Source: a virus. Taken from it: a DNA stretch of 64,000 nt. The position numbers and the translations under genes are program-made. Position 1 is the first letter of the stretch. Each line of letters starts with the position of its first letter. Shown here in pieces: positions 25,387-62,853 of the stretch. Where the stretch lies: positions 64,001-128,000 of the IMG/VR virus record IMGVR_UViG_3300031918_000005. One strand, given 5' to 3'. Under the pieces are notes generated by a model. The model saw nothing but the letters and a program-made list of their open reading frames with translations. It was not told the origin of the DNA and did not search any database.

Positions 25387-26604
25387 TCACCAAAGAGAGT
25401 TGAATGTTATTAATGATGAAGGTATCTCTTTTAGACCTATGGCAACAAGTATTCTATTGATATACGACAGATAATTTGACATAAATTGTATATCATATGA
25501 TACTGGATATTTTTGTAAAAACTGTGGTGGTATAACTCCAATAGGGAATGCAAAAACATCAATTATGGGGCTTGTTGTATAATACCATTGTATTTTATCA
25601 CCAGATTTTATTATAGAATATTTTTGTTTTATTTCATCAGGTGCAAGCGATATTTCGTTATTGTATTGAGCAATCGCTCTGATGTGAATAGGAGAACCAG
25701 CAACGTATTTTATATTATTATCAGAGCATTCAAGTATATATTTACCAAGATTATTAACTCTTTGAGTACTTAATATATTAATTATATCTATATGTGTGAA
25801 TTCTTCTTTTATGTTCCTGATTTTATCAACAATAATATTATAATCTATAATATCTGTCTTAATTATACAGTCAATTATAATTTCCTTAAGTTTTTCACGA
25901 ATAAATTTAGGTACAGATGTTTGATTCATTTCAAGACCAATAGCCTTTACATTTTCATATCTTCCAAATGTTGTTCCATTTTCCCAAATAAGTTCCTTAA
26001 CATATCTTTTTTTAGATGATATCAAGAATTTACCTATAATTTGTTCAAATGTTAATTTAAGGCACGGCATACCCGATATTCTTTTTTGGAATCCACCATG
26101 TAAACTTATGAAATGAGACAACATATGCTCAAGTGCTGGATATAAGTCGATTTTGTTTAATTTCAGGACAAAATCTTCAATAGTACCTTTATAATCAGTA
26201 TGGCTAATTATCTTACCATAATTTACAAACACCGAATCAGTATCACCATAAATTACAATATCTTCAGTTATTGGAGTAACATATGTTATACCAAGTTGTT
26301 CATGAATATGTGGTATATTAGGAAATCTTTCCTTGAAATATTTATTAAACCAAAATTTGGTGTACTTTATAACGTATGCCGATTGAGTAGATATAGAAGA
26401 AGCTACATATTTGTCATAAAGTATAAATGAAGAAAACCCAAATACGCCATATATAGAATTGAGGATTTTCTTTAAAGATAAATCCTCGCTCTTTTTTGAA
26501 AATTGTAAATTTTGAAGTCTAGTTATTTCATCATTGATTTCTTGTTCAGTTACTTCTTGACCTTTTTCAAACTTACAGTATTTTAAATCCAAATCATATA
26601 TCAT
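25387..26604 (-). CDS. Family B DNA polymerase, C-terminal half (split gp43)
   Basis: Motif B KKILNSIYG, motif C YGDTDS, KKRY; exonuclease and motif A absent. Confidence 0.9.
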   Translation of the reverse strand: MIYDLDLKYCKFEKGQEVTEQEINDEITRLQNLQFSKKSEDLSLKKILNSIYGVFGFSSFILYDKYVASSISTQSAYVIKYTKFWFNKYFKERFPNIPHIHEQLGITYVTPITEDIVIYGDTDSVFVNYGKIISHTDYKGTIEDFVLKLNKIDLYPALEHMLSHFISLHGGFQKRISGMPCLKLTFEQIIGKFLISSKKRYVKELIWENGTTFGRYENVKAIGLEMNQTSVPKFIREKLKEIIIDCIIKTDIIDYNIIVDKIRNIKEEFTHIDIINILSTQRVNNLGKYILECSDNNIKYVAGSPIHIRAIAQYNNEISLAPDEIKQKYSIIKSGDKIQWYYTTSPIIDVFAFPIGVIPPQFLQKYPVSYDIQFMSNYLSYINRILVAIGLKEIPSSLITFNSLW

Positions 26605-50221: not shown

Positions 50222-52225
50222 TTAAATTGAATGTATTTCACAAGAACCACCTGAACAAGCAGATTCTCTCGTGGTTTCTTTATTTATTGAAACGCCAACT
50301 TTTGATAAATCAATATCTTCAGGTATCATACTAATCATATATTCATATTGTTCTTTGTCGATTTTTTCAAAAGGTGTTTGTTGATAAGTATTATCGATTT
50401 TAGGTAATAATGTAAGACCAGCACAATCTTTTCTGTTTTCCCAAATCCAATTAATAACTTCATCAACATCTTTGTTGTCAACAGATACTGTTGCGGAAAC
50501 ATTATTGTAAGAAGAACCTTTATGATGTCCGTTTCTTATCCAATTGATATTATATCTTTTGATACGCTCAAGAAGTTCTATTGGTGATTCATTTTCTGTG
50601 ATACAATTATCATCACTTTTCATAGGTAAAGATAACACCAATTTAGTTTTATCAAGCAAATCATCTTCAATAAAATCTGGCATTACTTCTTTCAGATATT
50701 TTGCAATCGGCTGTGCCTTTTGAATTCTGATTCTTCTAGTATAATATTCAGCAAATGCAGAATGTACACCAGCACCAAATGCTTCAGCAACCAATGTTGT
50801 AGAGCCTTCAGGTTTTATACAAGTAACTCTATCAGCTGGATTTATACCAATAAGATTGGCAATTCTTTCATTTTCTTCTACTGCGCATTTTGCAGCTTGA
50901 GCCTCATCAAGATTTTCAATCTTACGACCAGCAATACCAGTTATTGAAACACCAAGTAATGCTTGTTTTTCAGCTTTTTCTTTCCAAGAATATCTAATAT
51001 AATGAAAATCAGTAAATCCAGCTTGTAAAGTACCAAAGAAAGCAGCGATTTTTGAACGAATATCAAAATCTTCTTGAGATTCTATATTATAAGCATTAAT
51101 TGTTGTTAAGTTACAGAATGACTCCGATTCAAAAACGATTTCACCACAAGGATTCGATAAAACATTATCTTCATTTGTGAACAGTATTCCAGGCTCTCCA
51201 GTACCGTTTGTGATTGATTTTTTCATCACAGTTTTGAATTCATTTTCTGTGATATTATCATATCTTTCAGAAATAGAATTGTTAGACATTGCTCTGTGTG
51301 GATAAACATGATACCATTGAATTTTATTGTATCTTAATAGAGCAATGTCTTCAACACTAACAGAGCTTATGCTTACTTCATGAGTTAAACCATCTTTTGT
51401 TATAATTTCATAAACGTTATTACCGTTTTCTTCTCTCAAGTATTTGTGAGATTTGAATTCAATTACTGATTTTGCATCAATAATAGTACTATCTTTATCA
51501 GCAAAAACAATGATAGCAGCCGAACGAATACCACCTGATACAACTGAATAAGCAATGATATCAACTATATCAAGACATTCTATATCTGTTAATTGTCTTC
51601 CAATTGCATTTTTAAGAATAATATCAATTTTTGTTATAGCCCATTGAAGCTTCTCACTTCCAGGAGCTTGACATTGTAGTTTTTTGATTAAAGAACCTTT
51701 TGGTCTGATATCAGAGAAATCAAAGGTAGGATAATTATTTCCTCTGAAATAAGAATACATCAAAATTCTTATTGCATCAGACCATCCCTCAACACTGTCA
51801 GAAATTCTGAATTTTTTTGGTGATGATGGTTGGATTACTGGAGGTAATTTGTTGATACATCTTTTTTTCAATGACACACCAACACCACAACCCGATAGAG
51901 ATAAAAACATAATTTCTGAAAAAACTTTAATATTGTCAAGTTCAATACCTGAACAATTATACATTCTCGCATGGTTGTTTTCAATTGGAATACCAGAATA
52001 CTGTAATGCTCTCATCGATGGAAAGACTTTTTTATTTTTTATAAACTGACCGTTTGAAATTATTTCATCTTCTAAATTTGGATATTGCCTTACCATCATC
52101 TGTAAGTATTCGTCAACTATTTCTACCCAATTCATTTTTCTTTGTGGATTGCCTAATTCTTCTTTTATTCGTGAATACTTCGTGAATACAACAATATCCG
52201 ATAGTAATTGGTCTGGTTTAATCAT
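50222..52225 (-). CDS. nrdJ: Class II (B12-dependent) ribonucleotide reductase
   Basis: PSMRAL, YNCS, GCGVG, VVSGGIR, NPCGEI, CNLT, TCIKPEG, C-terminal ACSGGSCEI. Confidence 0.9.
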   Translation of the reverse strand: MIKPDQLLSDIVVFTKYSRIKEELGNPQRKMNWVEIVDEYLQMMVRQYPNLEDEIISNGQFIKNKKVFPSMRALQYSGIPIENNHARMYNCSGIELDNIKVFSEIMFLSLSGCGVGVSLKKRCINKLPPVIQPSSPKKFRISDSVEGWSDAIRILMYSYFRGNNYPTFDFSDIRPKGSLIKKLQCQAPGSEKLQWAITKIDIILKNAIGRQLTDIECLDIVDIIAYSVVSGGIRSAAIIVFADKDSTIIDAKSVIEFKSHKYLREENGNNVYEIITKDGLTHEVSISSVSVEDIALLRYNKIQWYHVYPHRAMSNNSISERYDNITENEFKTVMKKSITNGTGEPGILFTNEDNVLSNPCGEIVFESESFCNLTTINAYNIESQEDFDIRSKIAAFFGTLQAGFTDFHYIRYSWKEKAEKQALLGVSITGIAGRKIENLDEAQAAKCAVEENERIANLIGINPADRVTCIKPEGSTTLVAEAFGAGVHSAFAEYYTRRIRIQKAQPIAKYLKEVMPDFIEDDLLDKTKLVLSLPMKSDDNCITENESPIELLERIKRYNINWIRNGHHKGSSYNNVSATVSVDNKDVDEVINWIWENRKDCAGLTLLPKIDNTYQQTPFEKIDKEQYEYMISMIPEDIDLSKVGVSINKETTRESACSGGSCEIHSI

Positions 52226-61452: not shown

Positions 61453-62853
61453 ATGAAACATTCACAAACGACTTTTAATTATTTCTTTGCAGAAGGAAAA
61501 ATAAGTTTCTTACTTGATGGGTTTGCAGGCTCGAGTGGTAAAGGACTTTTATCATCTAACATTGTTAAAAATAGCACAAATTGTAATTTTGCTATTTCAA
61601 CAAATGGTCAAAATGCATCACATTATTATGAGGAAAAATTTCCTGATGGTTCTGAAAAAATCATTTTGTTCAAAGTACTTCCAACATCTTCTGTTTATCA
61701 TAAAAAGCTTGATGCCGTTTATGTGTGTCAAGGAGCAGCATTTGAACCAAAAAGACTTCTTGAGGAAATAGAACTTACTGGTATTCCAAGACATAAAGTG
61801 AGAATTCATTATAAAGCTGGTATTATATCTCAACAAGACAGAGATTTTGAATCTGGTGTTTGTGATTATGAAGGTAATATTAATAAAGAACGACAAAAGG
61901 GTACTGTAACTTCGGGTACTACAGCAAGTGGTGCTGGTGCTGTTCGTGCTAAAAAATGTATGCGTAATCCAGACCAAAAAATTTACGCTTATGAATACCC
62001 TGAATTACAGGAGTTTTTATGTGATACGGAAAGAGAAATCATGTATAGACTTGATTCAGGCCAATCTGGTCTTTTCGAAATCGCTCAAGGTTTTGCACTT
62101 TCTTATGGTTTATCATACAGCAAAAGAAATACAACTGCTCGAAACTGCTCGATAACTGCTGCTATCGATGATGCTATGATTGCACCTTTTTATATTGGTA
62201 ATGTTTTTATTAATTTAAGAACACATCCTATCAAGATAAACAATATGAAATGGGTATTGAAAGGTGATGTTCCATATTATGTAACTGCTGAATTATCTTT
62301 AGCTGAAGCTAAAGCAAGATTCGAAGAAAGACTTTTCAATTTTGTTGATAACGGTATAGTAATAACAGTTATTACTAAAAAAGATATATTTTTAACTGGT
62401 TTTGATTTAGAAAAATATCCCGAAATACCATATGAAGTTGTTGATTCTTATTCAGGTGATTGGTATCGTAATGGTTGGGAAAAACCTGAAACACAAGAAG
62501 AATTGACTTGGGAACAAGTTGAGGAACAATATGGTGATAAAATAAACAAAAAAGCTATTTATACATCACTTACATTAATGCCAAGAAGAGTTGGAAGCTT
62601 TTCTACAGAACTCCTTGAAGATTCAATTAGATACAATATGCCACCAAGTGGTTACAAGGTTTATCTTTCATTAAATTTCTGTAACTGGCTTGATAAAGAA
62701 ATTGAAGGCAAAACAGAAGTTCAAGATATAACAGAAAAAGTTGAAAATTGGATTAATAAAAATATTGATTCTGTTGTTTTAAATTTTAAAGGTAGTGTAA
62801 AACTTGCTATACTTGGAACTGGTAAATGGGTTGATGAATTTATCCAAGTATAA
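61453..62853 (+). CDS. purZ: Adenylosuccinate-synthetase-family enzyme with PurZ (2-amino-dAMP pathway) signatures
   Basis: GSSGKG instead of PurA GDEGKG; NASH; EIAQGF.LS; RT.PI; SG.WY....QEELTWE; TLMPRRV; LNFCNW instead of TKLD. Confidence 0.72.
   Translation: MKHSQTTFNYFFAEGKISFLLDGFAGSSGKGLLSSNIVKNSTNCNFAISTNGQNASHYYEEKFPDGSEKIILFKVLPTSSVYHKKLDAVYVCQGAAFEPKRLLEEIELTGIPRHKVRIHYKAGIISQQDRDFESGVCDYEGNINKERQKGTVTSGTTASGAGAVRAKKCMRNPDQKIYAYEYPELQEFLCDTEREIMYRLDSGQSGLFEIAQGFALSYGLSYSKRNTTARNCSITAAIDDAMIAPFYIGNVFINLRTHPIKINNMKWVLKGDVPYYVTAELSLAEAKARFEERLFNFVDNGIVITVITKKDIFLTGFDLEKYPEIPYEVVDSYSGDWYRNGWEKPETQEELTWEQVEEQYGDKINKKAIYTSLTLMPRRVGSFSTELLEDSIRYNMPPSGYKVYLSLNFCNWLDKEIEGKTEVQDITEKVENWINKNIDSVVLNFKGSVKLAILGTGKWVDEFIQV

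Follow-up and report, generated by a model that had tools for sequence, protein, structure and literature searches.

The 64,000-nucleotide stretch of viral DNA analysed here (the window) represents bases 64001-128000 of IMG/VR virus record IMGVR_UViG_3300031918_000005; positions lying elsewhere in that record are given as genome coordinates. Within the window, a single unbroken open reading frame (ORF) at 61453-62853 on the + strand encodes a 466-amino acid (aa) protein of the adenylosuccinate synthetase (PurA) superfamily. The interpretation favoured here, with modest confidence, is that this gene would be a functional member of an uncharacterised long subfamily of PurZ, operating in a nearly self-contained pathway that leads from deoxyguanosine monophosphate (dGMP) to dZTP, the deoxynucleoside triphosphate of 2-aminoadenine (Z), the base that small phages put in place of adenine in their DNA by means of PurZ. 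The gene and all of the motifs attributed to it in a preliminary description of the window were recovered by the ORF call, alignment, and residue mapping. That description had assigned the gene to a T4-like jumbo phage; the genome, which is complete according to CheckV, has a length of 167,485 bp and a GC content of 28.6% (71% A+T), and this T4-type phage is accordingly large and not jumbo.

Family assignment and predicted structure of the synthetase

The 466-aa protein resembles the PurA/PurZ family much more closely than chance would allow. It matches PHROG 1211, the phage PurZ family (1.7e-19), and in a sequence search of the PDB its top match is PurZ of phage phiVC8 (6FKO and sister entries, 4.7e-14), with S-2L PurZ and Pyrococcus PurA both at 3e-8. 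The Pfam adenylosuccinate synthetase model aligns to the N-terminal third only and falls just short of its threshold (26.7 versus 27 bits). A structural model predicted with AlphaFold from 35 homologs has a mean predicted local distance difference test (pLDDT) score of 93 and, when used as a Foldseek query, retrieves phiVC8 PurZ (6FKO) first (E 6e-24, template modelling score 0.86 on the target, root-mean-square deviation 2.7), followed by P. horikoshii PurA, S-2L PurZ, and PurZ0, all of which rank above the long bacterial and eukaryotic PurAs.

The divergence of the enzyme, already remarked upon in the preliminary description, is evident from curated models and marks a separate subfamily. The protein scores 75.4 bits against the NCBIfam PurZ model NF038379 (cut-off 300) and 38.5 bits against the canonical PurA model TIGR00184 (cut-off 396), passing neither. 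Three other proteins of the same long clade score 116-153 with NF038379, and the controls, phiVC8 PurZ (397) and the PurZ0 of phage Wayne (367), both pass. The long subfamily falls outside the current curated PurZ definition, and surveys that use this model would therefore under-count candidate Z phages.

Substrate-determining residues

Residues were compared in an alignment of the 466-aa protein with its counterpart from Flavobacterium phage MaF61, two other homologs, three assayed-type PurZ proteins, two PurZ0 proteins, and E. coli PurA. The catalytic residues His57, Lys30, Gln212, Arg171, and Arg378/379 are kept, and all three marks of a canonical PurA are replaced, in each case by the substitution named in the preliminary description. 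In place of the Asp of GDEGKG (E. coli Asp13) there is Ser27 in GSSGKG; where PurA has NKxD or TKLD, and PurZ0 an Asp, there is NFCNW; and PurA Arg303, which contacts the ribose 2′-OH, is substituted by the hydrophobic Met376 of TLMPRR. Other motifs are located at residues 54-57 (NASH), 155-160 (GTTASG), 334-353 (SGDWY...QEELTWE), and 371-379 (TSLTLMPRR).

A restriction-enrichment study has identified twelve positions that separate the PurZ proteins of Z-modified contigs from the PurA proteins of unmodified ones (bioRxiv 10.1101/2025.10.22.683976). Nine of the twelve are identical in the 466-aa protein (S14, I34, P144, P233, Y244, W252, T262, S273, and F295 in phiVC8 numbering) and one is conservatively replaced (phiVC8 Tyr298 by Trp412). 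Substrate contacts were taken from the crystal structure of S-2L PurZ (PMC8342488). In the dGMP base pocket six of eight positions are identical to S-2L; Val241 is conservatively replaced by Ile262, and Tyr21, which provides a backbone contact only, has Ala25 as its counterpart with Phe24 adjacent. The residues G26, S27, N54, A55, T157, Q212, I262, and T371 agree with the PurZ pattern, the aromatic residue alone differing. The contacts to the guanine base and its 2-amino group are conserved, and the substrate contacts made exclusively by PurZ have counterparts here, S-2L Ser23, Thr273, and Gln308 corresponding to Ser27, Thr371, and Asn411.

The nucleotide-donor pocket (N408-F409-C-N411-W412) is of the adenine-nucleotide type, matching phiVC8 F295, N297, and Y298 and the NFxNY of PurZ enzymes that use ATP or dATP. 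Asn411 occupies the position of E. coli Asp333, as in ATP-using PurZ, whereas PurZ0 retains the Asp. The residue pattern, together with the fold and the phylogeny described below, supports grouping the enzyme with ATP-using, Ser-type PurZ rather than with PurA or PurZ0.

The long insert that the preliminary description placed at approximately 62240-62450 was found at essentially these positions (Table 1). It begins directly after Ile262, the counterpart of S-2L Val241, which clashes with the ribose 2′-OH; in S-2L, a PurZ-specific insertion of 9 residues at this point pushes Val241 towards the sugar C2′ and disfavours ribonucleotides (PMC8342488). The insert here is ∼70 aa in length, versus 9 residues in S-2L, and forms a small alpha/beta excursion in the predicted model. 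Across the long clade the stretch between the equivalents of Arg256 and Tyr338 spans 42-113 aa, in which a conserved frame (K-K-Y-I...HLTWEEV...IDSYSG) surrounds a hypervariable middle. With such variation in both length and sequence among clade members, the insert is an expansion hot-spot and not a single conserved domain.

Homologs and phylogeny

Two database searches detected ∼70 full-length homologs (400-485 aa, 30-80% identity) in metagenomes, many of them on contigs of 100-280 kb, in addition to some hundreds of less closely related proteins, 330-400 aa in length; a nucleotide-level search against a phage collection gave no match. All 224 retrieved homologs with a readable P-loop have GS..KG, and in none is the GDEGKG/PurA Asp found. 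Over 35 homologs with identities down to 32%, 37 alignment columns are invariant.

Phylogenetic relationships were inferred by maximum likelihood with IQ-TREE from 62 rows (LG+C20 with posterior mean site frequencies, PMSF), with support given as ultrafast bootstrap and the Shimodaira-Hasegawa-like approximate likelihood ratio test (SH-aLRT). The tree was rooted on four bacterial PurAs and also included a short PurA-like protein from a Rhizobium plasmid and short Asp-type phage PurAs. It contains no archaeal PurA (a search seeded with PurZ0 yielded PurZ0 relatives only, and no archaeal PurA), so that it leaves the exact root of the Ser clade unsettled. The Ser-type proteins form a clade (100/99) from which PurZ0 and its relatives diverge first, and the remaining PurZ in the broad sense (99/97) divide into three groups: a classical one (100/98), which holds the proteins of S-2L, phiVC8, and an Acinetobacter phage; one marked by a Trp-GSSGKG/NFxQY signature (100/98); and the long group that includes both the 466-aa protein and that of MaF61 (100/99). 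A quick tree of 106 rows agrees with this topology. The preliminary description had named clustering with canonical PurA among the outcomes that would refute its reading; the enzyme instead lies inside the Ser-type PurZ radiation. PurA-like genes of the cluster C mycobacteriophages, which are myoviruses, keep the Asp (GDAGKG) and are placed outside the Ser clade.

Of the Asp-bearing outgroups in these trees, the Rhizobium protein is the one closest to the Ser-type clade; it is encoded by a 335-aa Asp-type PurA-like gene that has folE and purB as its neighbours on either side on a conjugative Rhizobium leguminosarum plasmid (NZ_CP030762, 121100-122989). Among the PurZ-type homologs, many are 750-820 aa in length and match the 466-aa protein in three separated stretches (P0073, P0077, P0087, P0089, P0094, P0096, P0097, P0099, P0100, and P0105), and two such proteins contain LAGLIDADG and intein-splicing Pfam domains; the PurZ genes of several phages thus appear to contain inteins. 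In four metagenomic proteins of ∼510 aa (P0074, P0076, P0079, and P0081) a PurZ-type domain is fused to a NUDIX hydrolase domain (PF00709 plus PF00293), which would represent another route of coupling a nucleotide pyrophosphohydrolase to PurZ.

Other genes of the predicted pathway

The enzymes that follow PurZ in known Z phages are supplied by the host, and the preliminary description had named host PurB as the partner used by characterised Z phages. Reliance on host PurB was not borne out here, since the phage encodes its own adenylosuccinate lyase (PurB) 2.8 kb upstream of the synthetase gene and a guanylate kinase. The lyase matches the NCBIfam adenylosuccinate lyase model (3.7e-84) below the equivalog cut-off. 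The guanylate kinase gene adjoins that of an adenosine/AMP-deaminase-family protein, a pairing also present in a relative that is 80% identical (G001). The deaminase retains the zinc and catalytic residues of its family (HxH, HxGE, a further His, and a Zn-binding Asp) and reads TDG in place of the TDD of adenosine deaminases. Among solved structures, those closest to it are the ADAL/N6-methyl-AMP deaminases, which act on nucleoside monophosphates.

A search of the genome for the companions DatZ and MazZ, as the preliminary description had proposed, gave a mixed outcome: a MazG-like pyrophosphatase gene is present and DatZ was not found. No pairwise similarity was detected between the MazG-like protein and S-2L MazZ, and an assignment as MazZ was dropped. 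One weak six-frame match to a Pfam HD model (E 0.03), which hmmscan did not confirm, had offered a candidate DatZ; the ORF in question belongs to PHROG 318 (HD deoxynucleoside monophosphate, dNMP, phosphatases) and not to PHROG 7076 (DatZ). Also encoded are a canonical-looking dUTPase and a ribonucleotide reductase large subunit, the latter bearing on the supply of deoxynucleoside diphosphates.

The very A+T-rich composition and the family-B DNA polymerase (PolB) that had been ascribed to this phage are real, with the qualification that the polymerase is split into two genes. The halves lie ∼40 kb apart on opposite strands and match successive parts of the PF00136 profile (Table 1). The same split was observed in relatives G001-G004 and G008, and a single gene of ∼970-1000 aa in MaF61, G005, and G007. 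A search of the genome for a family-A polymerase (PolA) found none, and hence no DpoZ-type PolA of the usual Z gene set. Most polymerases accept dZTP (PMC8342488), so that the family-B enzyme departs from that gene set without excluding Z.

Co-occurrence in related phages

Twenty further records carrying a long PurZ gene were searched, and eight records, including this genome and that of MaF61, are near-complete. Among these eight, guanylate kinase was found in seven and the deaminase in five, and PurB and MazG in six each, one of the MazG matches scoring under the Pfam cut-off. In two complete 150-kb records, the PurZ, PurB, and MazG genes lie within 6 kb. Within the long clade, PolB is used in the sub-branch of the 466-aa protein and PolA is carried in other sub-branches; in one of these the genes for PolA and long PurZ are direct neighbours, an arrangement also known from classical Z phages.

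A control search was made outward from PurB. Five of the seven searchable large-phage records obtained in this way encode a different synthetase, of 332-336 aa, with GD[ST]GKG and NKxD, the pattern of canonical PurA chemistry. The Ser clade does not include such short Asp-type phage synthetases (L149-L153, on IMG/VR contigs 79-246 kb in length), and the genes, paired as they are with PurB, are apparently true adenylosuccinate synthetase auxiliary genes. Guanylate kinase was present in one of the seven control records, and MazG and the deaminase in none. PurB alone is not diagnostic, and the helper set tracks the Ser-type enzyme, which supports the predicted pathway without proving it.

Proposed pathway and alternative explanations

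It is proposed that the MazG-like pyrophosphatase would convert dGTP to dGMP, and perhaps also break down dATP. From dGMP, aspartate, and ATP or dATP, the long PurZ is predicted to form dSMP (N6-succino-2-amino-2′-deoxyadenylate), which the phage PurB is predicted to convert to the monophosphate of Z (dZMP). The phage guanylate kinase would then yield dZDP, and the host nucleoside diphosphate kinase (Ndk) dZTP, with which the split family-B polymerase would insert Z across from T. Two roles can be envisaged for the ADAL-like deaminase. It might convert dAMP to dIMP, clearing adenine nucleotides in place of DatZ, or it might act jointly with the kinase and the ribonucleotide reductase of the phage to channel the adenine pool via inosine monophosphate (IMP) into the guanine pool. 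Half of all bases would have to be Z or G in a genome of 71% A+T, so that the supply of guanine nucleotides would be limiting. What the analysis shows is an intact gene, its fold, residue pattern, and place in the tree, the gene content of the genome, and the co-occurrence in relatives; all substrates in the scheme, and whether and to what degree virion DNA contains Z, are inferred.

Sequencing reads Z as A. Virion DNA of this phage may contain Z, a point to be decided by chemical analysis and not from sequence. A wider proposal, which is held only tentatively and is rather more doubtful than the assignment of the gene, is that large A+T-rich myoviruses of Bacteroidota with family-B polymerases would replace all or most of their adenine by Z, employing the MazG-like protein, long PurZ, PurB, and guanylate kinase, and clearing or recycling adenine nucleotides by means of the ADAL-like deaminase rather than DatZ. 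This would be a new virus class, host phylum, and polymerase family for Z-DNA, and a new mode of dATP exclusion. Should dZMP be the product of the long PurZ, the known range of Z-DNA would come to include T4-type phages of 125-250 kb, probably of Bacteroidota, which copy their genomes with family-B polymerases, encode the greater part of the pathway, and have no DatZ. That would raise the questions of how a B-family replisome copes with or selects Z and how dATP is excluded, and the effect of Z on duplex stability would, at 71% A+T, be larger than in any known case. Through MaF61, a cultured carrier, the idea is cheaply testable.

Several observations weigh against a Z pathway. With respect to the enzyme, the archaeal-type PurA model scores it at 83 bits, slightly above its score with the PurZ model that it fails to pass. 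At two of the twelve discriminating positions the residue is a different one (Ala25 for phiVC8 Phe12 and Asn365 for Gly256), Ser replaces Gly beside the catalytic His in NASH, and there are further changes from Arg240 to Lys261 and from the stacking Pro336 of S-2L to Lys458. As the ∼70-aa insert is located at the sugar-specificity loop, the preference for ribo- or deoxyribonucleotides is not readable from homology. With respect to the genome, neither an S-2L DatZ query nor a search for HD_3 returned a DatZ, and no homolog of NDT/DmtZ was found; the DUF550 search likewise gave no match, and since it gave none in any control genome either, it is uninformative. The lack of a DatZ, HD_3, NDT, or DUF550 homolog leaves the genome with no recognised means of excluding dATP, the ADAL-like deaminase and the PHROG 318 HD phosphatase being candidate substitutes. 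The deaminase cuts both ways, because an enzyme of the adenosine deaminase family could revert Z nucleotides to G, and the proposed pathway requires that it spare dZMP. Synthetase, lyase, and AMP-type deaminase, moreover, also make up the ordinary purine nucleotide cycle. The counts given above for co-occurring genes are small, include fragments, and derive from phylogenetically related records.

The alternative that survives these considerations best, and which is nonetheless unlikely, is that the enzyme performs the same chemistry towards another end. Its substrate might be, for example, GMP, dXMP, or a modified dGMP; or dZMP might be an intermediate that is modified further, so that the DNA would carry partial Z or another purine analogue; or the product might not be meant for DNA. 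An identity of only 21-28% to assayed PurZ proteins, the failed curated model, the clade-specific NASH and GTTASG, and a loop insert of 42-113 aa are all compatible with such a change, as is the unusual helper set, which has no DatZ but includes a deaminase and a dNMP phosphatase of the HD type. The conserved guanine-base pocket and 2-amino contacts argue against a different base, however, and Ile262 takes up more room than Val, which by itself excludes the 2′-OH. Beside the synthetase gene no extra modification genes were recognised, although most neighbours have no family match, Pfam scans of 20 further ORFs around it and in the right arm having yielded little.

Somewhat less likely again is purine-pool auxiliary metabolism in a phage with canonical DNA, whether a purine nucleotide cycle or the conversion of IMP to AMP, or dIMP to dAMP, for an A+T-rich genome. 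The synthetase, PurB, and deaminase families are exactly those of the cycle, plain PurA and PurB auxiliary pairs do occur in large phages, and the A+T content, the lack of a detected DatZ, and the marginally higher score with the archaeal PurA model would all be accommodated. What this explanation does not accommodate is the substitution of Asp13 by Ser and of NKxD/TKLD by NFxNW, as in every characterised PurZ, given that those phage genes that plausibly carry out the canonical reaction retain both motifs and lie outside the clade. The enzyme is also nested with strong support in the PurZ radiation, and guanylate kinase and MazG go with the Ser type and not with the Asp type. That the gene has lost its activity or is in decay, with no role at present, is very improbable, the low curated-family scores and the substitutions beside catalytic residues (NASH) being the sole points in favour, set against an intact ORF, a confidently predicted fold, retained catalytic residues, the invariant columns shared with distant homologs, and retention of the gene in many large phage contigs.

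Comparison with known systems

Z-genome phages characterised thus far are small sipho- and podoviruses of Pseudomonadota, Cyanobacteriota, and Actinomycetota, in which the steps after PurZ are carried out by host PurB and guanylate kinase and the polymerase is DpoZ (a PolA) or PrimPol (PMC12884076, PMC8342488). Classical PurZ proteins, represented by those of phiVC8 (PDB 6FKO/6FM1/6TNH), S-2L (7ODX), and the Acinetobacter phage SH-Ab 15497 type, have in common with the long PurZ the fold, the Ser in place of PurA Asp13, the NFxN[YW] pocket, a hydrophobic residue for PurA Arg303, an insertion after the Val or Ile that excludes the 2′-OH, and an association with MazG-type pyrophosphatases. The long PurZ differs in being ∼100 residues longer, mostly due to the variable insert, and in its NASH and GTTASG variants. 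Whereas classical carriers are sipho- or podoviruses of ∼40 kb with DpoZ or PrimPol that depend on host PurB and Gmk, carriers of long PurZ are 125-250 kb in size, and this phage has a split PolB, its own PurB and guanylate kinase, and no detected DatZ.

PurZ0 (PDB 7VF6), found in Arthrobacter phage Wayne and in phages of Gordonia, shares the Ser-type P-loop, the fold, and a phage origin with the long PurZ, but its P-loop reads GSEAKG, it has an Asp of the guanine-nucleotide type at the E. coli Asp333 position, and it branches before the split between classical and long proteins. The canonical PurA proteins, including those of E. coli, the short archaeal type (P. horikoshii, 2D7U/5K7X), and the short Asp-type phage enzymes, belong to the same superfamily and share the fold, the catalytic His, Lys, Gln, and Arg, and the pairing with PurB; they differ in having GDEGKG or GD[ST]GKG, NKxD/TKLD, and Arg303, and lie outside the Ser clade.

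The only cultured relative, and the closest one for both the synthetase and the polymerase (34.8% identity), is Flavobacterium phage MaF61, a 167.8-kb myovirus confirmed by transmission electron microscopy, with Flavobacterium sp. B330 as host, whose published description is silent on both the gene and DNA modification. Its ORF141, annotated as a "putative adenosuccinate synthetase" (PQ858689), belongs to the same long subfamily, with 33.5% identity over 98% of the length, and MaF61, too, encodes PurB and guanylate kinase as well as a MazG-like protein and a family-B polymerase. It differs in that its synthetase occupies another sub-branch of the long clade, its PolB is unsplit, and it has no A_deaminase match. 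A search of the literature found no report of PurZ for a myovirus, a jumbo or T4-like phage, Bacteroidota, or Flavobacterium; the preliminary description had regarded the context as new, and against the searchable literature the combination of a very A+T-rich myovirus, a family-B polymerase, and no PolA is indeed so.

Feature coordinates and other observations on the genome

Table 1. Features of the synthetase gene and of other genes considered in relation to it. Positions refer to the window unless marked as genome coordinates.
Feature	Position	Strand	Basis
Long PurZ-type synthetase, predicted N6-succino-2-amino-2′-deoxyadenylate synthase	61453..62853	+	ORF, PHROG 1211, PDB and fold matches, tree
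P-loop GSSGKG, residues 26-31, with Ser27 where E. coli PurA has its catalytic Asp13	61528..61545	+	Alignment, residue mapping
Clade-specific insert, residues 263-333, directly after Ile262	62239..62451	+	Alignment
SGDWY...QEELTWE...TSLTLMPRR segment	62452..62589	+	Residue mapping to phiVC8, S-2L, and E. coli
NFCNW nucleotide-donor pocket, residues 408-412	62674..62688	+	Alignment, residue mapping
PurB, adenylosuccinate lyase, 450 aa	57275..58627	+	Pfam Lyase_1 2e-22, ASL_C 7e-19
Adenosine/AMP-deaminase-family gene (A_deaminase)	genome 140612-141643, outside window		Pfam 5e-26
Guanylate kinase	genome 141645-142133, outside window		1e-19, TTRxPRxGExDGxDYxF motif
MazG-like pyrophosphatase	genome 147220-147840		
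dUTPase, canonical-looking	genome 151310-151744		
HD dNMP phosphatase	genome 5065-5847		PHROG 318
Split family-B DNA polymerase, C-terminal half	25387..26604	-	PF00136 profile positions 153-390
Split family-B DNA polymerase, N-terminal half (exonuclease and start of palm)	genome 131677-133158, outside window	+	PF00136 profile positions 34-140
Ribonucleotide reductase large subunit	50222..52225	-	PF02867, weak match; coordinates from ORF call

Several short palindromes are strongly avoided genome-wide, namely GATC (84 observed versus 560 expected, a ratio of 0.15), CCGG (3 versus 72), CGCG (0 versus 16), and GGTACC (0 versus 13), and tetramer palindromes composed entirely of A and T occur near their expected frequency. 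Sites that contain few Z are only weakly protected by Z (PMC12944874), and the avoidance of restriction sites is for this reason neutral with regard to the presence of Z.

The polymerase N-terminal gene is followed by a GroES/GroEL pair (genome 133165-135121). An ORF at genome 129227-130303 has weak matches to an intein splicing domain and to the N-terminus of a T4-type terminase large subunit, suggesting that the terminase is interrupted by intein sequences.

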